Shown: piece by piece, positions 3,022 to 54,831 of the stretch
Numbering within the stretch: position 1 is the first letter of the stretch
Layout of the letters: each line of letters opens with the position of its first letter
From: Candidatus Iainarchaeum sp.
GTDB lineage: Archaea; B1Sed10-29; WALL01; JAGHAM01
Length of the DNA stretch: 64,000 nt
Assembly (NCBI GenBank): GCA_021161465.1
Contig: JAGHAM010000004.1
Coordinates: 3,035 to 67,034, forward strand
Direction of reading: 5' to 3'
The notes under the pieces: generated by a model
Told to the model about the DNA's origin: nothing
The model's input: only the letters and a program-made list of their open reading frames with translations
Databases searched by the model: none
Made by a program: the position numbers and the translations under genes

Positions 3022-4347
3022 GTGCTGGATGTTATTAGTCTTTTCGTTAGGCATAAGAATAAAATTATGGTTGTCCACAATACAGCCATGGCAGCTATAG
3101 CAAAATTTACCAAAGAGGAGGCACTTGATTACCACAAGAACAATTTTCCTGGGAACGGGAAGATAGAGGTAAGGAGCAAGGTGCCAGTCCAGACTTTCAA
3201 GGATTTGACTTTAGCTTATACGCCTGGTGTTGCAGAGCCGTGCAAGGAGATTCACGCTAACCCAGATTTAGTTCACGACTACACGACAAAGGATAACATG
3301 GTGGCAGTTGTCACTGATGGAACTGCAATACTTGGGCTTGGTGATATTGGTCCAGAGGCTGGTCTTCCTGTTATGGAGGGAAAATCCGTCCTGTTTAAGA
3401 GCCTGGCTGGCGTTGATGCATTCCCTATTTGTCTTTCAACTAAAGACCCCGATAAGATTATCGAAACTGTTGAGTATCTCGCCCCATCGTTTGGTGGGAT
3501 AAACCTGGAAGATATATCAGCTCCGAGATGCTTCTATGTTGAGGAAGAGCTCAAGAAGAGGATGGATATACCTGTATTCCATGACGACCAACATGGCACT
3601 GCCGTGGTTACTCTCTCAGGGCTCTTAAACGCGCTGAAGCTTGTTGGGAAGAAGATTAATGAAATAAAGGTTGTATTTAGTGGGGCTGGAGCCGCGGGAA
3701 TTGCGTGCTCAGAATTCTACATGAGCGCTGGTGTGAAGGACCTGATAATCTGTGACAGCAAGGGCACAATCTATGATGGAAGAGAGGAAGGTATGAATCC
3801 ATATAAGGAGAAGATAGCCAAGGTAACGAACAAGGAGGACGTTAGAGGAAACCTTGCGGATGCTATGAAGGGGGCAGATGTGTTTGTTGGTGTTTCCGCG
3901 CCGGGAATAGTGACCGAAGATATGGTCAGGTCCATGGCTGACGACCCGATTATTTTTGCATGCGCGAATCCCGTTCCTGAAATCATGCCAGAGAAAGCAT
4001 TGAAGGCAGGGGCCAAAGTTGTCGCCACAGGCAGGTCTGACTATCCAAACCAGATAAACAACGTGCTTGGCTTTCCTGGAATCTTCCGTGGGGCCTTAGA
4101 TGTCAGAGCCAGTGACATCAATGAGGAGATGAAGTTTGCTGCAGCCAGGGCTATAGCTTCATTGGTGTCCGAAGACGAGCTGAGGCCAGATTATATAATC
4201 ACCACTCCAATAGATAAGCGAGCAATGCCAGCTGAGGCAGCGGCAGTTGCTGAGGCAGCTATGAGAACCGGTGTGGCACGGCTAAAGGTTGACCCGGAGG
4301 AAGTTGCTGAGAGAACCAGGAAGTGGAGAACCCTGGAGCTGGAATGA
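3022..4347 (+). CDS. NAD(P)-dependent malic enzyme (malate dehydrogenase, decarboxylating)
   Basis: N-terminal 'LAYTPGVAEPC' and Rossmann 'VFSGAGAAGIA' motifs characteristic of small archaeal/bacterial malic enzymes. True start probably an internal Met (about 3067 or 3088), since the gene is divergent from 1975..3009. Confidence 0.75.
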   Translation: MLDVISLFVRHKNKIMVVHNTAMAAIAKFTKEEALDYHKNNFPGNGKIEVRSKVPVQTFKDLTLAYTPGVAEPCKEIHANPDLVHDYTTKDNMVAVVTDGTAILGLGDIGPEAGLPVMEGKSVLFKSLAGVDAFPICLSTKDPDKIIETVEYLAPSFGGINLEDISAPRCFYVEEELKKRMDIPVFHDDQHGTAVVTLSGLLNALKLVGKKINEIKVVFSGAGAAGIACSEFYMSAGVKDLIICDSKGTIYDGREEGMNPYKEKIAKVTNKEDVRGNLADAMKGADVFVGVSAPGIVTEDMVRSMADDPIIFACANPVPEIMPEKALKAGAKVVATGRSDYPNQINNVLGFPGIFRGALDVRASDINEEMKFAAARAIASLVSEDELRPDYIITTPIDKRAMPAEAAAVAEAAMRTGVARLKVDPEEVAERTRKWRTLELE

Positions 4348-10327: not shown

Positions 10328-10734
10328 GCTGGGGTGGCGGAAGTTCACGAGCAGGCAAGCTCGAGAAGTTCAGTTCACGAGCAGGCAAGCTCGAGAAACG
10401 CAATCCGGTTCAACGCGCCGGCCTCGAGTAGCCGCAAAATCGGCTAGCGCTTTAGGCGTCTCACGCTCCGCGTGAGAGCACCAGGTGTGGCCGTAAAATC
10501 GGTTCACGCGAACCGTAAAATCGGTTCACGCTTTGGGTGTTGCGCTACGCGCAAGCACCAGGCGGATGATTAAGGACTTAGTCTAAACCTAAGTGAAAAA
10601 TAACAGGTGCTAGACTTTGTCCAAGTGCCTTACGCTATATGTAAGGCAGGCATCCTGAAAGCCGGTGGGCGCAAGCCCGTGCAGGTTCAAACTGTTTCGT
10701 CTCCGTATGAAACAGGAAATTCCTGCCCCCAGCG
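10328..10734 (+). tRNA. tRNA-Ser(CGA) candidate interrupted by three introns (D-loop ~62 nt, anticodon 37/38 ~231 nt, T-loop 59/60 ~29 nt)
   Basis: Perfect 7-bp acceptor GCTGGGG/CCCCAGC with G73. U8-G9 and a 3-bp D-stem GCG/CGC with a GGTTCAA D-loop remnant. Anticodon stem CCGGC/GCCGG, loop CTCGAG|A. Type-II variable arm TGGGCGCAAGCCCGT (GNRA hairpin). T-arm GCAGG-TTCAAA[intron]T-CCTGC. Hand fold only. Confidence 0.45.
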
Positions 10735-15773: not shown

Positions 15774-18230
15774 TTGATGAAACACAAGATACTTTTTGGT
15801 ATCCTCATAGGACTATCAATCATGTTTTTGGTTGGTTGTGTTGGAGAACAAGGCGCTCCGAGTCACCAGAGCTTGGAGGTTTCTGTTTATGATTCCAACT
15901 CAAGTTCCCCTCTTGCTGGGACTCCTGTCATTCTTTATAATTCCTCCAACAAGGTGATTGCCACTAGTGTTACAGATTCTAGTGGCCATGCCTCGTTCGA
16001 TGTTTCTCCTGGCGACTATTATATCAAAGTAAATACAACAGGGTTCAATGAGAAGAGAAAAAGCGTTTCTATTGGCCCTATAGAAACCACCGTTGTTGAT
16101 GTGGGTGTCAGGAAACTTGGTGAATGCCTCGAGAAGTGGTCTTGCACTGACTGGGGCCCATGCACTAACGGGAAACAAACTCGTATGTGTATGGATGTCA
16201 ACGACTGTAATACAACATATAATAAGCCATCTGAGGAGCAGGCATGCAATTCTTTGGAGTGCTCTGCAAATTCAGAGTGTGATGATGATAACCCGTGCAC
16301 AACTGATAGCTGTACAGATGGCAAGTGTATCTACTCCCCCATAAAGTCATGCACCAGTGGTGATGGTTGTTGCCCATTTGGTTGTTCATATAACAACGAT
16401 AAGGATTGCCCAGAAGCTGACCAGTGTTCAACCAATACAGACTGCAACGACAATAACCCTTGCACTTTTGACAGTTGTGCTGGCTCACCAAAGGTTTGCA
16501 TTCATTCAACCATAATAAGTTGTTCTGACAACGATGATTGTTGCCCATCTGGCTGTAGTTATGTGGATGACAACGATTGCATGCCTGTTGATAAGTGTAA
16601 GCTCGATTCTGACTGCGATGATAATAATGCATGCACAGTGGACACCTGTTCAGGTATCCCAAAGGTTTGCCGTCATTCAACATTAACAGCATGTATTTCT
16701 GGTGATGGTTGTTGCCCAAGCGGTTGTAACCCGGCTGATGACGCTGACTGCAGGGAATGTGAGACAGACGGGAACTGCGATGATGGTAATCCCTGCACTA
16801 ACGACACCTGTGTATCCTGGGTCTGCGAGCACACAGTTTCTAGTGAGGGTTTATCGTGTGGTGAAGGGAAAGTTTGTTGTGGAGGAGAATGCAGGAGGGC
16901 ATGCTCTTCTGCCCAGGATTGTGCTGACTGGTTCGAGGATAACAATGAAAGCTTTGACTCCAACTGTACTGAATTCTCCTGTACCGACCCCGGCAACTGC
17001 TGTTATGCTAATTGCATTATAAGTGTTTCCCCGTGTGGTCCAGAGGACGGATGTTGTCCTTCTAACTGCAATTCTGAGGAGGACCCTGATTGTGAGACTT
17101 GTACTGATGAGTGCGATACTGAAGGCACGACCCAATGCAACGGTAACACCTTGGAGTCCTGCGGTAACTGTGATGGAGATTCCTGCCTTGAATGGTGCAA
17201 TCCTGACGACTGCAGTGACTGCTCCTGCGATTGCGGTAATTACTCCTCTGACCAGGATGAATCAGCGGTAAACTGCAGTGATGGAATAGACAATGACTGT
17301 GATGGCCTAATAGACTGTGATGACGTTGATTGTGTTTCTTATTGCGGTGAGTGTGAGCCTGGAGAAACCAAGGTTTGTGATAACCAGGAGGGAGTTTGTA
17401 AGGGTTCGGAGCAAACCTGCACTCATGAAGGAGACTGGCCCGGCTGTGTCTACACGTCAATTAATGGTTATGAGTCAGCAGAAGCCACCTGTGATGATGG
17501 GCTGGACAATGACTGTGATGGCCTGACTGACTGCGACGACCCTGACTGCAGTAATTCACCGGAATGCCAGGAGGACAGTTCTGTCAACTTTAAGGCGCGT
17601 TGCATAATGACTTATCCACCGGCGGGAGGTAATCAGTGTGATTTCTACTTTGACAATGTTGGAGAAGGTCATGTGCTCGAACCCTTCAAAGTAGATATGA
17701 AGACCAATGGAACTGCCAGACCATGGGGCCTAGGTAGTATTACTGTTAATCTGAAAGATGAAACCGGAGCCGGATGGACAAAACTCTTGAGATTGCCCTT
17801 AAACTCTTCTTACTGGACTGCTGAGGGAATATGCAGCAAAAACTCAGGCATAGAAAAAGTCGCGAAATGTGATTCGAGTGGTGAAGTACTGGAGGAACAT
17901 GTGTGCGGAGAAGGAAACGACTTTTCGGTTGGAATGGAAGACTATTTGAAGATAAAGCTTTCTGTTGACAGCCTAACGCTTTCCATTGAGGACGGTCTGA
18001 TGTATGAGTATGGTGGTTTCTTTGCTGGAGGGTCACAGTCCTTAGATGCTGAGATGGTTATACCAGGTAATTCTTATGTCATGGTAACTTGCGACTGGTT
18101 GGACACAGGCGAACTTCCATTGCTCTTGGAGATGGTTGTGGACCCTGATAACAGAATTTTGGAATCGGATGAAAGTGATAATGTCGATTCACTCTTCTTG
18201 ACAAGCGTAGGACAGACAAATTGCTTTTGA
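15774..18230 (+). CDS. large secreted lipobox protein: Ig-like/CarboxypepD_reg-like N-domain, ~6 Myxococcus-type Cys-rich repeats, MopE-like DNDCDG motifs, CARDB-like C-terminus
   Basis: Signal peptide 'LVGC'. Repeated 'CxDDNPCTxDxCxxGxCxH...CxSGDGCCPxGC...DxDC' modules. 'CSDGIDNDCDGLIDCDD' and 'CDDGLDNDCDGLTDCDD'. C-terminal '...VDPDNRILESDESDN' CARDB-like ending. Real start likely ATG 15777. Confidence 0.7.
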   Translation: MMKHKILFGILIGLSIMFLVGCVGEQGAPSHQSLEVSVYDSNSSSPLAGTPVILYNSSNKVIATSVTDSSGHASFDVSPGDYYIKVNTTGFNEKRKSVSIGPIETTVVDVGVRKLGECLEKWSCTDWGPCTNGKQTRMCMDVNDCNTTYNKPSEEQACNSLECSANSECDDDNPCTTDSCTDGKCIYSPIKSCTSGDGCCPFGCSYNNDKDCPEADQCSTNTDCNDNNPCTFDSCAGSPKVCIHSTIISCSDNDDCCPSGCSYVDDNDCMPVDKCKLDSDCDDNNACTVDTCSGIPKVCRHSTLTACISGDGCCPSGCNPADDADCRECETDGNCDDGNPCTNDTCVSWVCEHTVSSEGLSCGEGKVCCGGECRRACSSAQDCADWFEDNNESFDSNCTEFSCTDPGNCCYANCIISVSPCGPEDGCCPSNCNSEEDPDCETCTDECDTEGTTQCNGNTLESCGNCDGDSCLEWCNPDDCSDCSCDCGNYSSDQDESAVNCSDGIDNDCDGLIDCDDVDCVSYCGECEPGETKVCDNQEGVCKGSEQTCTHEGDWPGCVYTSINGYESAEATCDDGLDNDCDGLTDCDDPDCSNSPECQEDSSVNFKARCIMTYPPAGGNQCDFYFDNVGEGHVLEPFKVDMKTNGTARPWGLGSITVNLKDETGAGWTKLLRLPLNSSYWTAEGICSKNSGIEKVAKCDSSGEVLEEHVCGEGNDFSVGMEDYLKIKLSVDSLTLSIEDGLMYEYGGFFAGGSQSLDAEMVIPGNSYVMVTCDWLDTGELPLLLEMVVDPDNRILESDESDNVDSLFLTSVGQTNCF

Positions 18231-23064: not shown

Positions 23065-23288
23065 TTAAATCCCTTAACTCGGTATGCATTATTAAATATA
23101 CACGTTCTCATTTAAATATCTTTGCAATAATATTACATATGTATTCTTCCATTCTCCTATGCCATACTAAATCAGTCTGCCCGTCTGTCATCACAGCGTT
23201 AGCTCAGAACTCATAGGGCTCATCATCTGATGTTGATTGTCCCATAATTGGAATAAAAGGCTTCTGGTGATGTATCAGTTATTGACAA

Positions 23289-24665: not shown

Positions 24666-27644
24666 GTGATTATGATAACCCGAAATCTATGTGTTTTGCT
24701 GTTTTTCACCACTCTTTTGCTCTTTGTAGGATGTCTTGAGCCTCAGGAAACTGATAAAAATGTTCAGTTTTTAGTTTATGATACAACTCCAAGCAACGTT
24801 CTTGAGGGAGCTTCAATAACCATTTCAAATAGTTCTGGTGTATTTACCTCTCTCACAACAGATACATCTGGGGTTGTTTTTCTCCGACTTCCTCCAGGTG
24901 AGTACAGAGCCGAAGTTTCAAAGGAAGGATATCAAGGAAGACAGTTTAAATTCACAGTTTCTGGAAATACTTTCGTTACCTTGGATGCACCATTAGAAAG
25001 GATGAAACCATGTGTTGAAAACTGGTCCTGCTCAGAGTGGAGTTTATGTATCAATGGGACTCAAACTAGGAGTTGTATAGACAGTAATCACTGCAATACA
25101 ACTGAGAATAAGACTATTGAAGAGCAATCATGCACTCCACCTGAGTGCCAGATAAATTCTGACTGCAATGACAGTAATCCATGCACTACTGACTCTTGTG
25201 TAGATGGAACTTGCAAGCATGAAACGATAACCAAGTGTAAGTCCGGAGACAAATGCTGTCCAAGTGGGTGCACTCATGATAAAGACAGTGATTGCCTACA
25301 ATTAGTTCGATGCAACTCTACGTCTGACTGTGACGATGGAGATTCGTGTACACTTGACATTTGCTCAGGGAATCCAAGAGCATGTTCACATGTGAAGGTA
25401 ACTGCCTGTTCTGACAATGATGGTTGTTGTCCAGCGGGGTGTACTTACAAGGCCGATGATGATTGTGAACCAGTGGACGAATGTCAAACAGATGCTGACT
25501 GTGATGATAGCATACCCTGTACAAAGGATACTTGTTCAGGCGCTCCAAAAACATGTTCTCATGCCATGGTTACTCAATGCGTAGACAATGACAGTTGCTG
25601 CCCTGAGGGTTGTAGTTATCTCAACGACACAGATTGTCCTGAAACAGATGAGTGCTCAACGGATTCTGACTGTGATGATGGTGTGAACTGTACTCTAGAT
25701 ACATGTTCTGGAACTCCAAAGGCATGCCACCACACTCACATCACTACTTGTCAGTCTGGCGATGGCTGCTGCCCAGAAGGGTGCAACTATCTCAACGATA
25801 CGGACTGTCCAAATCTTGACCAGTGCTTAACCAATGCTGATTGCGATGACAACAACGTTTGCACTATGGATGTATGTAATGGAACTCCAAAGATGTGTTA
25901 CAACCTTCCTATTACTGAATGTCGGGATAATGATGGCTGTTGTCCATCTGGGTGTTCGTATGTGACCGATAACGATTGTAGTCAACAGGAGGTCACGGAG
26001 ACGCTTTATGTGGGAGACTTTGCTGTTGTTGGAGGCCTACCCATTTACCTACAATCAGTAACAAGATCATATATGCCCGGTGTGATTGGTAGTGCAACCA
26101 TGCTGGTTGGTGGGAAGAAACTTTCACTTAATGATGGTGATGCATTCCCTGGGGATGAGAACTGGAAAGTTAAAGTGACTACCGGTGCAACAGGCCAATG
26201 CCCGTCAGGTATGACCTGCAGCAATGGCTACATAGACTACATAACTCTGTACTATGATAAAACCCTCCAGCCATCGGATAAGGTAACAAAGATTGTTGGT
26301 CCAAATCCAAATCATTATTTCGAGTTGTCCTATGATGGTGATGAAGTTTCAAGAGGTGTATGGGACTCTGAAAGTGTGAGTTTGAAAGCAATGAACTATG
26401 GGTGCTTAGACAAACTTACATACACAGATGGAACGTATGAAAAGGCTTATGCGGTCGACATGAACTCCAATGATGGTCTTACCACAGCATTCCTTGCTGA
26501 TGGAAACGGCGGTGTTAGTGATGGTTCTAACCCACTAGATTTGCAAGAAGGAGATATCTTCTTCGTGGAGAACACGCCTGTTTATATAAACTCAATAGCT
26601 ATGTCTACTTCCCCATACAACTCCAAGGTAACCTTTACGGTCGGCTACGGAGCAACTGACGGCAAGACCTCTACCAAAGATGTTACTGGCGATGGGTGTA
26701 CAACTTCTGGTGGATGGGTATACTGTACCCCAACAATACTGGCGACGACCGTTGGCTTGAACTGGACCTTTAACATTTCGCAGTACTCTGAACCCATCCT
26801 CCATGTCCTAAGCGGAGCAGACAACGTACTCAACACAAAGTATGGTTCTTTGACTTGGCAGTCCGATAATCATGTCTTGTTTTCCAGCATGACTTTTAAG
26901 GATTCTTATAACCAAGAGTTCCTCGTTAAGCGACCGAGCTGTATGAGTACAGGATTGAAAGTTACAGATACGAGCGAAACTATGATATATGTTGACCAAT
27001 CTGGCACACATCCAGAATATGAATACAATAAATTCCATGAAACAGCTGGGGCTTGGATCGAGTCTGTAGATGATGACACGATAAAATTCGTTAATCCAGA
27101 ACATGCTCCAAGGACCGAGAGAGTTACGCTGTGTAAATTGGAGAGTGGCTCCTCTGGTTGCGAAATTAAAGATTTAGATTGGAATTATGGCATTACTCCC
27201 TCAAACAAGTTAGTCATTGACCACGATCAGGGTTTAGTTTTATCATCTTTCCCGTACAACGGTTCTGATTATGACTACAGCGAAACAGTCGTTGCGGGCG
27301 ATTCAACGATTCCCCTCTACTATGAGGAAGGAACCGATTTCCATGGTGTTTACTTCTCTGATCTCAAACCACAGAAGTATTATTATCGATTAGATTTCCT
27401 GGATAACTTCCCCATTGGTTTGGAGGCACATTCGCCAGAATTAAAATTTTTAGGTAGTGATTATACACTAACCAAAGTTGGTTCGACGGAGGTTGATCTA
27501 GTGGATGGTGCTAACTTGCTTTTGGGTGTTGGCTCTTGTCAGGATGTACCTTATCAAGGGCATACCTACAATCTATGTGTGATTAGTATAGGGTTTAATG
27601 ATGAAACTGAAACTGGATTTGCATCTATACGAGTTATTCAATAA
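24666..27644 (+). CDS. large secreted lipobox Cys-rich repeat protein (paralog of 15774..18230) with ~560-aa unique C-terminal domain
   Basis: Same architecture as 15774: signal 'FVGC', CarboxypepD_reg-like domain, 'ENWSCSEWSLCINGTQTRSC' module, six 'CxDxxxCTxDxCxGxxxxCxH...DGCCPxGC' repeats, then a large beta-rich domain. Confidence 0.7.
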   Translation: MIMITRNLCVLLFFTTLLLFVGCLEPQETDKNVQFLVYDTTPSNVLEGASITISNSSGVFTSLTTDTSGVVFLRLPPGEYRAEVSKEGYQGRQFKFTVSGNTFVTLDAPLERMKPCVENWSCSEWSLCINGTQTRSCIDSNHCNTTENKTIEEQSCTPPECQINSDCNDSNPCTTDSCVDGTCKHETITKCKSGDKCCPSGCTHDKDSDCLQLVRCNSTSDCDDGDSCTLDICSGNPRACSHVKVTACSDNDGCCPAGCTYKADDDCEPVDECQTDADCDDSIPCTKDTCSGAPKTCSHAMVTQCVDNDSCCPEGCSYLNDTDCPETDECSTDSDCDDGVNCTLDTCSGTPKACHHTHITTCQSGDGCCPEGCNYLNDTDCPNLDQCLTNADCDDNNVCTMDVCNGTPKMCYNLPITECRDNDGCCPSGCSYVTDNDCSQQEVTETLYVGDFAVVGGLPIYLQSVTRSYMPGVIGSATMLVGGKKLSLNDGDAFPGDENWKVKVTTGATGQCPSGMTCSNGYIDYITLYYDKTLQPSDKVTKIVGPNPNHYFELSYDGDEVSRGVWDSESVSLKAMNYGCLDKLTYTDGTYEKAYAVDMNSNDGLTTAFLADGNGGVSDGSNPLDLQEGDIFFVENTPVYINSIAMSTSPYNSKVTFTVGYGATDGKTSTKDVTGDGCTTSGGWVYCTPTILATTVGLNWTFNISQYSEPILHVLSGADNVLNTKYGSLTWQSDNHVLFSSMTFKDSYNQEFLVKRPSCMSTGLKVTDTSETMIYVDQSGTHPEYEYNKFHETAGAWIESVDDDTIKFVNPEHAPRTERVTLCKLESGSSGCEIKDLDWNYGITPSNKLVIDHDQGLVLSSFPYNGSDYDYSETVVAGDSTIPLYYEEGTDFHGVYFSDLKPQKYYYRLDFLDNFPIGLEAHSPELKFLGSDYTLTKVGSTEVDLVDGANLLLGVGSCQDVPYQGHTYNLCVISIGFNDETETGFASIRVIQ

Positions 27645-28124: not shown

Positions 28125-28198
28125 AAAGAAATCACCATTTGTTCCAAATTTTGCAGTTTATTCTTAATAAACCTGCTTCGCTTACACGTAGTAAAAAG

Positions 28199-28415
28199 GG
28201 CCGCGGCCGGGAATTTCCTACCCAACTCACAATCGTGTGTGGGGTTAGGAGGGGCGCAGCCCCTCTTTTTGAACCCGGGCCAGGGGATTTCTGCAAGATG
28301 CAGGATTATCGTCTACCCCCCATAGATGGATTGCGTAGCAATCCTCTGGGGTTAGAAGGGGCGCAGCCCCTCTTTCCACAGTCCCCTATACTAGCCAGGC
28401 TATACAACCGCAGCC
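28199..28415 (-). tRNA. tRNA-His(GUG) candidate with anticodon-loop intron (~85 nt) and T-loop 59/60 intron (~56 nt)
   Basis: On the minus strand: G-1 + acceptor GCTGCGG/CCGCGGC with C73. U8. D-stem GTAT/GTAT (G-U) with D-loop AGCCTGGCTA. Anticodon stem GGGGA/TCCCC, loop CTGTGG|A (anticodon GTG). Variable TGGC. T-arm CCGGG-TTCAAA[intron]T-CCCGG. Confidence 0.5.
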
Positions 28416-28447
28416 ATAGGTTAATTTTTAGAACAAGGTTGTTTAAA

Positions 28448-28699
28448 TTATTTCTTAAGTTTCTTGTAGCTGTATTCTACTTCATAGTGTTTCATCAACT
28501 TTTCAGCAATTTTTTGACCAGATTCTATCAGAGGTTGCCCGTACCTTTTGCCTATCCTTGTGCGAAATTCAACTTTACCAATAAATCTATAATGTTCTGG
28601 AGCAACTTTAAGGGCTTCCTCTTTAGATAATCCCAGTTCTACCCTTTTTCCGAACATTCTTGCTGCTTTAAAATCGTGTTCTTTAATCTTGGATTTCAC
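28448..28699 (-). CDS. hypothetical small basic protein (83 aa)
   Basis: ORF only. Confidence 0.35.
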   Translation of the reverse strand: MKSKIKEHDFKAARMFGKRVELGLSKEEALKVAPEHYRFIGKVEFRTRIGKRYGQPLIESGQKIAEKLMKHYEVEYSYKKLKK

Positions 28700-47265: not shown

Positions 47266-48126
47266 ATGTTAACAGTGAAAAATATAATGTTGGTATTCAT
47301 GGACTTTAAAAAACTCAGAGAGAAGGCATTTAAGGAAACTATTAATGAAGTTCGCAAGGAGAAGAAAGAAACTGATAACCTTGTTGTCCAGGCTGTTGAG
47401 GCGATAGATGAGCTTGATGATATCACGAATATCATAGTTGAGAGAGTGAAGAACTGGTATGCCTTCCACTACCCAGAGCTTGAAAAGCTCGTGAAGGATC
47501 CTATGCTATACCTGCTTATAATAAAGGAGATTAAATCGAGAGACCAAATGCTCGCTGAAAAACTCGAGAGGTTTGTCGGGCCAGAACGGGCAAAAGCTAT
47601 TGCAGAGAAAGCTGTTGGGTCTATGGGGGCCGAGATTGTAGATAAAGACCTGCAAAGGCTTGTACATCTGGCAGAGCTTGGGATTCATGCAAGACAAGAA
47701 AGGGATGAGTTGGCCGATTACATAGAAGAGAGGACAAAAGAAATCACACCAAACCTTCATGCTATGCTTGGTGGTATGCTTGCTGCAAGGCTTATAGCGA
47801 GAGCAGGTTCACTTGAGCGGCTAGCTAAAATGCCTGCCAGCACCGTGCAGGTACTGGGCGCGGAGAAGGCATTGTTTGCACATCTGCGTAGGGGTGTTCC
47901 TTCTCCAAAGCATGGTTTGATATTCCAGTTCCCACAGATAATCCAGTCCCCAAAGAAGCAGCGTGGGAAGATATCCAGGGCGCTGGCTGGGAAGGTTTCC
48001 ATAGCAGCCAAGGAGGATTTCTTTGGAAATAAGGATATAAGCAAAGAACTAATTCAAAGCTTTGAAAAGCGGGTTGAGGCTATAAAGGAGGGAGCATCAA
48101 AGAAGAAGGGTGGCAAGCATGAATGA
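47266..48126 (+). CDS. Nop5/Nop56-family C/D box snoRNP protein (short archaeal form)
   Basis: Nop domain 'MLGGMLAARLIARAGSLERLAKMPASTVQVLGAEKALF...HGLIFQ'. True start probably the Met at about 47299. Confidence 0.8.
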   Translation: MLTVKNIMLVFMDFKKLREKAFKETINEVRKEKKETDNLVVQAVEAIDELDDITNIIVERVKNWYAFHYPELEKLVKDPMLYLLIIKEIKSRDQMLAEKLERFVGPERAKAIAEKAVGSMGAEIVDKDLQRLVHLAELGIHARQERDELADYIEERTKEITPNLHAMLGGMLAARLIARAGSLERLAKMPASTVQVLGAEKALFAHLRRGVPSPKHGLIFQFPQIIQSPKKQRGKISRALAGKVSIAAKEDFFGNKDISKELIQSFEKRVEAIKEGASKKKGGKHE

Positions 48127-48775
48127 AATCTTTCATAATGTTTTCCGTGAAGGCAACAAACTTTACACAAAGAACTTAGTTCCTGGGCAACGGGTTTACG
48201 GAGAAAAACTTTTGGAAACTGGCCGGGGAGAGCTGAGGGAATGGAACCCAAACAGGTCCAAGCTGGCTGCGGTGATACTAAAGGGCTTGAAAACGTTTCC
48301 ACTCAAGCAAGATTCAAAGGTGCTCTATCTCGGTGCTGCCCAGGGAACCACTGCATCACACGTTAGCGATGTAGTGGACAAAGGTTATGTTATCTGTGTT
48401 GATGTATCCTCTAAGGCTATGGAGGAGCTGATACCTCTGTGCGAATCCCGCCAGAATATGCTTCCGGTTCTTGGAGATGCTAACAGGCCTGGAGAGTATG
48501 CTAAGTATACTCTTGGAATTAATATGATTTATCAGGATGTTGCCCAACCAAACCAAGCTAAAATACTGCTAAAGAACGCTTCACTGCTTGATCCAGGGGA
48601 GTACGCTATCTTATGTATTAAAAGTAGGTCAATAGATGTTGCAGAAGACCCAAAGAAAATCATCAAAAAAGAGTTGGAATCCGTTTCTGATGGTTTTTTT
48701 GTGAGAGAGGTGATTGACCTCGAGCCATACCACATGGACCATGCACTAGCTGTGTGTGAGAAAAAACTTAGTTAG
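48110..48775 (+). CDS. flpA: fibrillarin-like rRNA/tRNA 2'-O-methyltransferase
   Basis: 'VLYLGAAQGTTASHVSDVV' SAM-binding motif of fibrillarin. Start overlaps the Nop5 stop. Confidence 0.85.
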   Translation: MASMNEIFHNVFREGNKLYTKNLVPGQRVYGEKLLETGRGELREWNPNRSKLAAVILKGLKTFPLKQDSKVLYLGAAQGTTASHVSDVVDKGYVICVDVSSKAMEELIPLCESRQNMLPVLGDANRPGEYAKYTLGINMIYQDVAQPNQAKILLKNASLLDPGEYAILCIKSRSIDVAEDPKKIIKKELESVSDGFFVREVIDLEPYHMDHALAVCEKKLS

Positions 48776-49737
48776 GCCAGGTTATAGTCAATTATGCGCT
48801 TCATCATCACGAAGGGCTGTGCTCCACCAATCAAGCTATCACCGATGTAAAAGGAGGGGGCTACTATGGCTCCTTCTTTTATTGCCAGCTGGTAGTCTCC
48901 CTGTACTGTGCTTACCTTTTCCCCGTTTCCAAAGCATGTGTTGAACTCTTCCATATCGAGACCAACCTTCATAGCATAGCTCTTTAAGTCTTCGTCAGAC
49001 AGTGCATCCTTCAAAGATTCTGGATCCCAGTTATCATAAAGCACATCATGATATTCCCAGAATTTACCTTGGTCATAAGCGCATTCTGCTGCCTCTGCTG
49101 CCCTTTCTGACCTAGGGTGTATGCTTGTGAGCGGGAAGTTGATGAATACATATTTTGCCTTGCCAGTGTCAACATAATCTTTTATGATTTTCTTGTAGGT
49201 TGTTCTGTAGAAGTTCCTGCAGTATGCACAGTCGAAATCACCAAATTCAACTATCGTGAGCTTTGCTGACATATTTCCCTTTATGGGCTGTCCATCAAGG
49301 TTTATCTTCGATGGCGACAGTTCAGGTGTCATTAAAACAAAGTATATCTTTTCTATCTTTAGGGTTCTGTCATCCACCCTGACTTCTATAATCTTTAGGC
49401 CTTCGTTTGTTTTAGCTTCATAGTCTACAAGCCATTTGCCATTAGCGAAATTGTATCTGGTATTTTTTATTGAACCGCCGTATCTAAGGCGTGTCAGAGT
49501 ACTTAGCACAAGATGGTTCACATCATTATTTGTCCTTATTGGAAGGATTATGTTGGAAACAGACGAGGAGGGCACATTCATGTTGCATACCCTCTCCTCT
49601 TTTAGCACTTGACTGGTTCCAGCAAGTATGCCAATCATCAGGGTTGCTGAGATAAATACAATTATCAAATACCATGTTCCCGGAGGTATATCCCATGGAC
49701 ATTCTTCGCTCAGCAACTTCTTGAGCTTTTCCATCAT
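48772..49737 (-). CDS. membrane-anchored thioredoxin-fold DsbA-like oxidoreductase
   Basis: 'FGDFDCAYCRNFY' CxxC active site, with an N-terminal TM helix. The ORF-track N-terminal extension to 49818 overlaps the tRNA 3' exon and is probably not translated (start at 'MMEKLKK'). Confidence 0.6.
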   Translation of the reverse strand: MMEKLKKLLSEECPWDIPPGTWYLIIVFISATLMIGILAGTSQVLKEERVCNMNVPSSSVSNIILPIRTNNDVNHLVLSTLTRLRYGGSIKNTRYNFANGKWLVDYEAKTNEGLKIIEVRVDDRTLKIEKIYFVLMTPELSPSKINLDGQPIKGNMSAKLTIVEFGDFDCAYCRNFYRTTYKKIIKDYVDTGKAKYVFINFPLTSIHPRSERAAEAAECAYDQGKFWEYHDVLYDNWDPESLKDALSDEDLKSYAMKVGLDMEEFNTCFGNGEKVSTVQGDYQLAIKEGAIVAPSFYIGDSLIGGAQPFVMMKRIIDYNLA

Positions 49738-49757
49738 GTTATTACTCCATTTGTAGG

Positions 49758-50188
49758 TGGGCGCGAAGGGACTTTCCACCCCAATAGGGGGTTTGAGGCG
49801 CACCAACCTTCCCTGCACACATGGATTTGATAACCTTCTATCTCCATGCAGGTACCCTCTGCAGGGTTAGAGGTTCGTCCAGACCATAAGTCTAAACGTG
49901 TGCACCCTTTTCTTCCTGCGTATCGGGTGGCCTCGTGCCACCCCTGCAGGTTTAGAGATTCGTTCTAGACTGTAGGTCTAGAACGGGTGCAACCCTCCTG
50001 GTGCAACCAATCTTCCTACAATCGGGATACGGATGATATTCCATCCCCATGCAGGTTTAGAAAGGGTGCAACCCTCCTGGTGCAACCAATCTTTCGAACC
50101 CTCGGCCTCAGGTTATCCTCAGCCACGCTGAGTGTACCAGAACGGGCCTTATAAGACCTGCGCTCTGACCTGGCTAAGCTACGCGCCC
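49758..50188 (-). tRNA. tRNA-Ile(UAU)? candidate with anticodon intron (~35 nt) and very long (~320 nt) T-loop 59/60 intron
   Basis: Minus strand: acceptor GGGCGCG/CGCGCCC with A73. UA. Canonical D-arm GCTT-AGCCAGGTCA-GAGC. Anticodon stem CAGGT/ACCTG, loop CTTATA|A. Variable AGGCC. T-arm GAGGG-TTCGAA[intron]T-CCCTT. The intron carries two 28-nt direct repeats. Confidence 0.4.
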
Positions 50189-54664: not shown

Positions 54665-54831
54665 GGACGCGTAGCCTAGCCAGGATTGTTCCGTGGCAAC
54701 AGCTCATGGAATCCTGATAGGGCACCGGCCTTCTAAGCCGGCTATCGGGGGTTCAAAATAAGGAGGAGGGACACGTTCCCTCCTCCCTTATAAGCCCTTC
54801 TCCTTTGCGAGTGAGTTTCCCTCCGCGTCCG
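54665..54831 (+). tRNA. tRNA-Arg(UCU) with D-loop intron (~32 nt) and T-loop 59/60 intron (~60 nt)
   Basis: Acceptor GGACGCG/CGCGTCC with G73. U8 A9. D-stem GCCT/GGGC, D-loop AGCCAGGA[intron]TA. Anticodon stem CCGGC/GCCGG, loop CTTCTAA. Variable CTATC. T-arm GGGGG-TTCAAA[intron with 12-bp hairpin]T-CCCTC. Confidence 0.6.

Follow-up and report, generated by a model that had tools for sequence, protein, structure and literature searches.

The gene for tRNA-His(GUG) in the DNA analysed here, a 64-kb stretch of a contig from Candidatus Iainarchaeum sp. that we call the window, is interrupted by two introns headed by the same 29-nucleotide (nt) module, one intron being at the canonical position 37/38 in the anticodon loop and the other in the T-loop. 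Removal of both introns restores a complete cloverleaf, confirming that this is a real tRNA-His(GUG) gene, and it is probably functional, and the only copy, in a Diapherotrites (DPANN) archaeon. The locus is a well-supported further case of an archaeal multi-intron tRNA with paralogous introns; what sets it apart, judging from sequence comparisons, appears to be a short structured intron module that is conserved over three archaeal phyla and copied within one gene. We consider it highly probable that the module was copied at the DNA level into the T-loop, that both introns are spliced at bulge-helix-bulge (BHB) motifs, and that the role of the module is structural.

The pre-tRNA is 217 nt long and complete. 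It lies on the minus strand (28415..28199) and runs from G-1 at 28415 to C73 at 28199, with no encoded CCA end. Exon 1 (28376..28415) contains G-1, the 5' strand of the acceptor stem, the D-arm, the 5' strand of the anticodon stem and residues C32-G37 with the GUG anticodon, and reads G(-1) GCUGCGG UU GUAU AGCCUGGCUA GUAU A GGGGA CUGUGG. After the first intron, exon 2 (28268..28288; A UCCCC UGGC CCGGG UUCAAA) supplies A38, the 3' strand of the anticodon stem, a 4-nt variable loop, the 5' strand of the T-stem and U54-A59, and exon 3 (28199..28212; U CCCGG CCGCGGC C) supplies U60, the 3' strands of the T-stem and acceptor stem, and C73. When both introns are excised in silico, the resulting 75-mer is called tRNA-His(gtg) by ARAGORN. 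Its acceptor stem is 7 bp long with one U-G pair, its D-stem includes two G-U pairs, and its anticodon and T-stems are 5 bp each; all stems are complementary, G-1 is opposite C73, and the anticodon loop is intact. Excising only one of the introns gives no correct tRNA-His. The restored cloverleaf and the ARAGORN call bear out the His identity that an earlier note on this DNA had proposed from the GUG anticodon and the G-1/C73 pair. That note had also estimated two introns of about 85 and 56 nt; the two introns are there, but their lengths are 87 and 55 nt. On the raw window neither ARAGORN nor Rfam at its gathering thresholds detects any tRNA, and an Rfam search at E ≤ 5 gives no family match at the tRNA-His locus; the gene is missed because the introns disrupt it, not because it is absent. 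Nor is the locus a one-off misassembly, since an independent ENA scaffold (L033, ERZ23499370; L numbers are our labels for loci in other sequences) is identical over the whole gene and its flanks except for a run of Ns upstream of the gene. An A/T-rich, TATA-box-like sequence, AAUAAUUUAAAC (28441..28452, minus strand), is a putative promoter element about 26-37 nt upstream of G-1, and comparable boxes stand upstream of the orthologous genes described below. Two bases past C73 there is an oligo-T run (28193..28197, minus strand) that is likely to be an archaeal transcription stop, and the L021 and L026 orthologues are likewise followed by T-runs. A mechanical open reading frame (ORF) of 163 codons runs antisense over the whole gene (28139-28630, plus strand); it is called as a gene in L033 (6856-7347), and is almost certainly spurious.

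Intron 1 (28289..28375, minus strand; 87 nt) has a strict hBHBh' motif. Its 4-bp central helix is formed by CUGU of C32-U35 (28381-28378) pairing with GCAG (28294-28291) just before the 3' splice site, its two bulges are 3 nt each (GG|A and AA|A), and its outer helices are the anticodon stem and AAGA:UCUU; we checked these pairs in a constrained fold. Placement at 37/38 gives the anticodon GUG followed by G37 and A38. A fold forced to contain the BHB is about 3 kcal/mol less stable than the minimum free energy (MFE) structure under the cloverleaf constraint. The intron ends in UUGCAGAA, so its predicted circle junction is UUGCAGAA|AAAGAGG. The central helix and the 3-nt bulges are kept in five orthologues through wobble-compatible changes, the 3' strand of the helix being GCAG in L020, L022 and L003, ACGG in L021, and GCGG in L026.

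Intron 2 (28213..28267, minus strand; 55 nt) has a putative relaxed BHB. A run of A residues makes its boundaries ambiguous and allows several placements, but we place it at 59/60 because four orthologues have the T-loop UUCAAAU, which only the arrangement UUCAAA|intron|U reproduces. In the central helix U54, U55 and C56 pair with A, A and G of the sequence GGAAAU|U at the 3' end of the intron. In a constrained fold, the 3' cut falls within a bulge of 3 nt (AU|U) that immediately precedes the T-stem, and the 5' cut falls in a 5-nt junction loop beside the module hairpin. The predicted structure resembles the hBH type that is cut by the enzyme of ARMAN-2 (Candidatus Micrarchaeum acidiphilum): according to PMC3239211, the ARMAN-2 epsilon2 endonuclease cleaves 59/60 introns including those with the relaxed hBH motif. 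More generally, DPANN EndA enzymes with extra loops accompany heavy tRNA disruption (PMC5829648). In position and geometry intron 2 matches the T-loop introns of the other three tRNA genes in the window and of two loci (L002, L005) described below. In both introns of the window gene the constrained folds allow the module hairpin and the BHB to coexist.

The module copy in intron 1 (28347..28375, minus strand) reads AAAGA-GGGGC-UGC-GCCCC-UUCUAACCCCA, with its hairpin at 28370-28358, and the copy in intron 2 (28240..28268, minus strand) reads AAAGA-GGGGC-UGC-GCCCC-UCCUAACCCCA, with its hairpin at 28263-28251. They score 48.7 and 47.1 bits with our covariance model of the module (R1). With intron 2 at 59/60, the first A of its copy is the exon nucleotide A59. 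These are the only two copies in the window at up to 3 mismatches, compared to none in 100 shuffles. The claim that two introns of one gene, at 37/38 and in the T-loop, share a hairpin module therefore stands (28 of 29 bases identical), though the repeat had been given as 30 nt and the thirtieth base in fact differs between the copies. The single difference within the 29 nt is UUCUAA in intron 1 versus UCCUAA in intron 2, and it is mirrored in the downstream partner strand, which is GGGGUAGA in intron 1 and GGGUAGG in intron 2 (UAGA versus UAGG). Thus the similarity expected of paralogous introns at different positions is high, but it does not extend over the whole intron: what introns 1 and 2 share is the 29-nt module.

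Comparison with the related introns described below indicates that the hairpin itself is maintained. The variants seen are GGGGC/GCCCC, AGGGC/GCCCU, GGGGU/ACCCC and AUGGU/ACCUU; 98% of alignment cells are paired, two pairs show double changes, and the true register clearly beats slid registers. The compensatory changes are G-C to A-U in the outer pair and C-G to U-A in the closing pair. RNAalifold on five family members supports the module hairpin only. In the family members with a strict BHB (L002, L005, the L003 type and L026), the sequence GAGGGG has two possible partners, either the module's own 3' strand, giving the hairpin, or a C/U-rich stretch abutting the 3' splice site, giving the h' helix of the BHB. 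The module hairpin also looks like the anticodon arm of tRNA-His (GGGGA/UCCCC), but this likeness fails in the Thermoplasmata genes and we take it to be coincidence.

The aminotransferase gene next to tRNA-His encodes a protein 100% identical to one labelled as coming from a Candidatus Diapherotrites metagenome-assembled genome (MAG) at NCBI, and the window contains ORFs for alanyl-, arginyl- and other aminoacyl-tRNA synthetases, Nop5 and fibrillarin, as well as a box C/D small RNA (sRNA); therefore the window is chromosomal DNA of a DPANN archaeon. In two related loci (L020 and L021) the gene order of the window is retained, with aminotransferase, PAP2, RMMBL and tRNA-synthetase genes, and tRNA-His adjoins the aminotransferase; in two others (L026 and L022) tRNA-His is close to a homolog of that gene. 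The aminotransferases of these relatives are about 56-62% identical to that of the window. All four orthologous tRNA-His genes have the 37/38 intron only and an uninterrupted UUCAAAU T-loop, so intron 2 was gained in the lineage of the window. Intron 1 would then be the ancestral, canonical His intron common to the relatives and intron 2 a lineage-specific gain. A diverged module stands at the start of the canonical intron in each orthologue: AAAGAAGGGGCUUUGCCCCUUUCUAAACCCC in L026, AAAGAAGGGCUUCGCCCUUUCUAAACCC in L020, AAGGAAUGGUUGCACCUUUUCUAAACUC in L021 and AAAGAGGGGUUUUCACCCCCUCUACCCCC in L022. Five other module-bearing His genes (these four and one from Thermoplasmata) are called tRNA-His by ARAGORN after splicing in silico, and share the GUG anticodon, the G-1:C73 pair and the cloverleaf. 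Between the window gene and its Diapherotrites orthologues, exons are 88-95% identical, the first 30 intron bases are 67-80% identical, and the remainder of the intron is about 35% identical, which is to say unalignable. The module is under a constraint not felt by the rest of the intron. The two copies within the window gene are almost identical, as against 67-80% identity between orthologues, which points to a copying event in the recent past or to homogenisation that is still going on. In L022 (Diapherotrites MAG GCA_021162685.1, 11650-11860) we also noticed a 16-nt copy of the tRNA-His 5' end (GGCUGGGGUAGUAUAG) about 200 nt upstream of the complete gene, separated from it by hairpin-rich DNA in which UCGUAGUGUGGCA occurs twice. 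This duplicate may be the scar of an insertion or integration event at the tRNA gene.

We scanned for the module with degenerate patterns, one over 185,579 species-representative genomes and one over JGI metagenomes. Apart from a few bacterial chance hairpins, the only matches were tRNA introns. One group consists of related Thermoplasmata contigs (L003, L004, L006, L007, L011 and L013-L016), identified as such by a neighboring gene whose product is 100-73% identical to NCBI proteins from Thermoplasmata or Thermoplasmatales. Here the module is in the canonical (37/38) intron of tRNA-His(GUG), which is 42-51 nt long. It is invariant among these contigs except for the hairpin loop and one C/U change, and the 3' half of the intron varies by strain (GGAAUCCCUU, GCAGAACCUCUU or GCAGAAUCCGGAAUCCCUU) while keeping its complementarity to GAGGGG. 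In the Thermoplasmata relatives L030-L032, tRNA-His is not kept beside the HPS gene. The other group consists of a MAG labelled Candidatus Micrarchaeota and matching metagenome contigs, where the module is in the 59/60 introns of tRNA-Gln(CUG) and tRNA-Ile(UAU). In every module-bearing tRNA intron found, the module begins 0-2 nt past the 5' cut, and in silico splicing yields a proper tRNA from each of these genes. The module of intron 1 is identical to that of the Micrarchaeota Ile intron (27/27) and differs by 1-2 bases from those of the Thermoplasmata His introns, whereas the His exons of the window and a Thermoplasmata gene are only 77% identical. Conversely, the covariance model finds nothing above noise outside tRNA introns, either in the window, searched without filters, or in related archaeal loci amounting to about 340 kb, and two scans of viral contigs gave nothing, or chance matches in phage coding regions. 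The dispersed copies outside tRNA genes, such as those of a miniature inverted-repeat transposable element (MITE), that the earlier note had named as grounds for abandoning its interpretation were thus looked for in the window, the related loci and the viral contigs, in intergenic and coding sequence, and there are none. Its suggestion of intron spread gains from this confinement, from the four orthologues without a T-loop intron, and from the module heading introns of other tRNAs, at other positions, in other genomes. We conclude from these comparisons that the module, made up of AGA, a G/C hairpin of 5-7 bp and UYCUAACCCC, is the conserved 5' element of an archaeal tRNA-intron family present in two further phyla, not a general repeat.

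Using the module model together with a search for T-arm words, we uncovered three more tRNA genes in the window. The gene for tRNA-Ile(UAU) (49758-50188, minus strand; 431 nt) gives tRNA-Ile(tat) by ARAGORN when spliced. Its intron at 37/38 (50149-50115) is 35 nt long, with a 3' bulge of 4 nt. The one at 59/60 (50092-49772) is 321 nt long and consists of roughly four units in tandem, 79-105 nt each, which start with AGA, a hairpin and UUCUAAACC, a diverged form of the module; within this intron, a 44-nt repeat recurs with 93% identity at a spacing of 79 nt. This gene overlaps the mechanical start of a DsbA-like ORF (48772..49818). The gene for tRNA-Arg(UCU) (54665..54831, plus strand) has a D-loop intron of about 30 nt, whose splice sites are approximate, and a 60-nt intron at 59/60 (54758-54817) that begins with a long hairpin followed by CUUAUAAGCCC and is distantly module-like, scoring 12 bits with R1; ARAGORN accepts its spliced forms as tRNA-Arg(tct). 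The third gene, for tRNA-Ser (10328..10734, plus strand; about 407 nt), has three introns: one of about 61 nt in the D-loop, containing two tandem 25-nt repeats, one of about 270 nt in the anticodon loop, with internal repeats, and one of 29 nt at 59/60 (10692-10720), whose 3' end, AGGAAAU|U, is the same as that of His intron 2. Its anticodon is CGA or UGA depending on the choice of splice sites, and ARAGORN accepts both products. The window's tRNA genes, four in all (Ser, His, Ile-UAU and Arg-UCU), are therefore each disrupted by two or three introns, and all four carry an intron at 59/60 with the same 3' bulge geometry. By this pattern the genome appears to group with the heavily disrupted tRNA sets of ARMAN-2 and the Thermoproteales.

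In the reading we favor, the pre-tRNA-His transcript would lose two protein-spliced BHB introns. EndA would cut both bulges of each BHB, strict at 37/38 and relaxed at 59/60, and an RtcB-type ligase would join the exons and circularise the introns. The second module copy would have come from DNA-level copying of the module into the T-loop site, either by transposition of an intron, from the canonical position or from another family member, or by gene conversion of an existing 59/60 intron; candidate donors are intron 1, 107 nt upstream, and a family member elsewhere in the genome. As for what the module does, a structural role is most likely. Lying directly 3' of the 5' cut, it would supply or hold a G-rich strand beside the 5' splice site and lock the intron into a hairpin, which may let the BHB and the tRNA body fold correctly and keep the G-rich strand from mispairing with the tRNA body.

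Several observations weigh against this reading. A proper terminal h' helix is missing from intron 2, whose central helix stops at an A-G mismatch after just 3 bp. The unconstrained MFE structure of the pre-tRNA adopts neither the cloverleaf nor the BHBs. No EndA-type tRNA-intron endonuclease and no ligase was found among the 40 window ORFs scanned against Pfam. The alignment of the two introns that the earlier note had called for reveals the shared module, but past it the similarity is not significant (37 of 500 shuffles score as well); therefore the alignment does not support transposition of a whole intron from intron 1 and does not point to a donor. The module of intron 1 is as close to that of the Micrarchaeota Ile intron as it is to that of intron 2. 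Finally, the near-invariance of the single-stranded UUCUAA is not explained by a purely structural role.

In a rival account, the introns would be members of a BHB-intron family capable of horizontal movement among tRNA genes, positions and archaeal phyla, with the module as the conserved end of the mobile unit. In its module the window resembles other phyla more closely than it does its own relatives; the T-loop introns of tRNA-Gln and tRNA-Ile in the Micrarchaeota MAG (L002 and L005) are homologous throughout (0 of 500 shuffles as good); and the 321-nt T-loop intron of tRNA-Ile in the window is a tandem series of module-bearing units. Contact between ARMAN and Thermoplasmatales cells, noted in PMC3239211 as a route for lateral gene transfer, would provide an opportunity. 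But viral contigs and sequence outside tRNA genes yielded no copies, the module is not associated with any transposase or reverse transcriptase, the His 37/38 intron has the same position in the gene in both phyla so that old vertical inheritance with selection fits equally well, and the sample is a handful of genomes found by a pattern that requires the consensus sequence. We regard horizontal mobility as not very likely. A broader proposal is that the module is a functional or mobile tRNA-intron RNA element of 25-29 nt (AGA, a G/C hairpin and UUCUAACCCC), maintained with compensatory changes, which seeds introns at BHB-competent sites and forms the end of a mobile BHB intron exchanged between DPANN and Thermoplasmata. 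This we find rather doubtful; if it were true, the tRNA-His gene would display a donor and a new insertion side by side.

Alternatively, selection for a function could have kept the module in both introns, whether as a binding site for a protein or RNA, as one arm of a conformational switch, or through an activity of the excised circle. In the switch version, the G-rich 5' strand would alternate between the module's own 3' strand and the C/U-rich stretch near the 3' splice site, and so time or order the splicing reactions. The proximal and distal partners of GAGGGG recur in L002, L005, L003 and L026, with an analogous arrangement in the Arg intron of the window, and UUCUAA is nearly invariant whatever its pairing partner. 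The compensatory changes in the hairpin, the far better conservation of the module than of the rest of the intron, and its near identity across phyla in spite of 77% identity between His exons also fit a function. On the other hand, the module matches no known motif (nothing in Rfam at E ≤ 5, no C/D boxes, and flanks unsuited to a K-turn), considerable change in it is tolerated by close relatives, and the T-loop intron of tRNA-Ser in the window lacks it. We judge a function of this kind unlikely, and a structural contribution to splicing remains our preferred account.

The gene might instead be a pseudogene, killed by a repeat that inserted into the T-loop, with a working tRNA-His gene elsewhere in a genome of which only 64 kb is visible. 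The relaxed BHB of intron 2 and the failure of ARAGORN and Rfam to recognise the gene would fit this. However, its stems are all perfectly complementary and its G-1:C73 pair and anticodon loop are intact, it sits beside the aminotransferase gene that also flanks the one His gene seen at that place in the relatives, and an independent assembly is identical. Moreover, each of the four tRNA genes in the window is interrupted precisely at 59/60, the geometry of the 3' bulge being the same in all, and that four out of four should be pseudogenes is implausible; this makes the pseudogene interpretation very unlikely. That the module is a generic genome-wide hairpin repeat, either a MITE, a repetitive extragenic palindromic (REP) or terminator-like element, or an assembly artefact, is hardly credible: a loose pattern does pick up chance G/C hairpins in bacterial contigs (L001, L008-L010, L012 and L019), but the bacterial and phage matches have no tRNA context and score 16-18 bits or are never associated with tRNAs, while the window has no further strict copy, all above-noise matches in the related archaeal loci fall inside tRNA introns, and the locus is the same in a second assembly.

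Earlier work (PMC3239211, PMC5829648, PMC4090602 and references therein) has already established that archaeal tRNAs can have several introns, that DPANN tRNAs can be interrupted at 59/60, that BHBs can be relaxed and that introns at different sites can be nearly identical. Our literature search turned up no account of this module, nor any of tRNA introns in Diapherotrites. The nearest parallel is ARMAN-2, which according to PMC3239211 and PMC3488258 is also a DPANN archaeon with introns at 37/38 and 59/60, several per gene, with relaxed hBH motifs at 59/60 that are cleaved in vitro and that the predicted structure of intron 2 resembles, a tRNA-Ile(UAU) with a canonical intron, and a large share of disrupted tRNA genes on which tRNA finders fail. 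It differs in belonging to another phylum than Diapherotrites and in having a known endonuclease, of the epsilon2 type, and the parts of the text read report no sequence module common to its introns at different positions. In Thermoproteales, similar introns at different positions have been interpreted as the result of DNA-level transposition and late gain, with the requirement for a BHB defining the possible targets (PMC4090602, citing Fujishima 2010). In that account, however, the similarity covers whole introns and the families are described within one order, whereas here both copies are in one gene, only a 29-nt 5' module is common to them, and the module extends to a Micrarchaeota MAG and to contigs from Thermoplasmata.

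Two other kinds of element are comparable to a lesser extent. The pre-tRNA-Trp intron found in Haloferax and other Euryarchaeota, in which a box C/D guide RNA is embedded (PMC4090602), is at the canonical position and its internal sequence is conserved through an extra function. The tRNA-His locus, in contrast, has by inspection no C (RUGAUGA), D (CUGA), C' or D' boxes and no Rfam match (E ≤ 5), so we rejected a box C/D guide intron and cannot propose a guide function. Inspection also led us to reject a K-turn or L7Ae site, because the stem, although preceded by GA, is followed by UUCUA, without the G-A that such a site requires. Like MITE and REP-like elements, the module is a short G/C-rich hairpin repeat with several copies. 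It differs from them in being confined to tRNA introns, directly 3' of the 5' splice site, with no terminal inverted repeats, no target-site duplications, and no intergenic or coding copies.

How archaeal protein-spliced tRNA introns arise is unsettled, and it is the pattern alone that has been described, in Thermoproteales. The tRNA-His locus offers a compact natural experiment, with an ancestral and a lineage-specific intron carrying the same 5' module in one essential gene, four orthologues without the new intron, and the module present in other tRNAs and phyla. Hidden multi-intron genes such as these, four of four in 64 kb and all missed by ARAGORN and by Rfam at gathering thresholds, help to explain the 'missing tRNAs' of DPANN genomes (PMC5829648).

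Other features of the window include the box C/D sRNA on the minus strand (23170-23230), with C (AUGAUGA), D' (CUGA), C' (GUGAUGA) and D (CUGA) boxes and two 12-nt guides. Its Rfam score is 30 bits, under the gathering score of 38, and it was found in the E ≤ 5 scan; L026 has an orthologue (about 3668-3730) a short way downstream of its tRNA-His. The Nop5 and fibrillarin genes are at 47266-48775. On the plus strand, two genes (15774-18230 and 24666-27644) encode what look like secreted proteins of very large size, with a CarboxypepD_reg/SpaA-like domain at the N-terminus and, in the second, also a long run of Cys-rich repeats of the CxDxxxC type. Both look like cell-surface proteins of the sort typical of DPANN.

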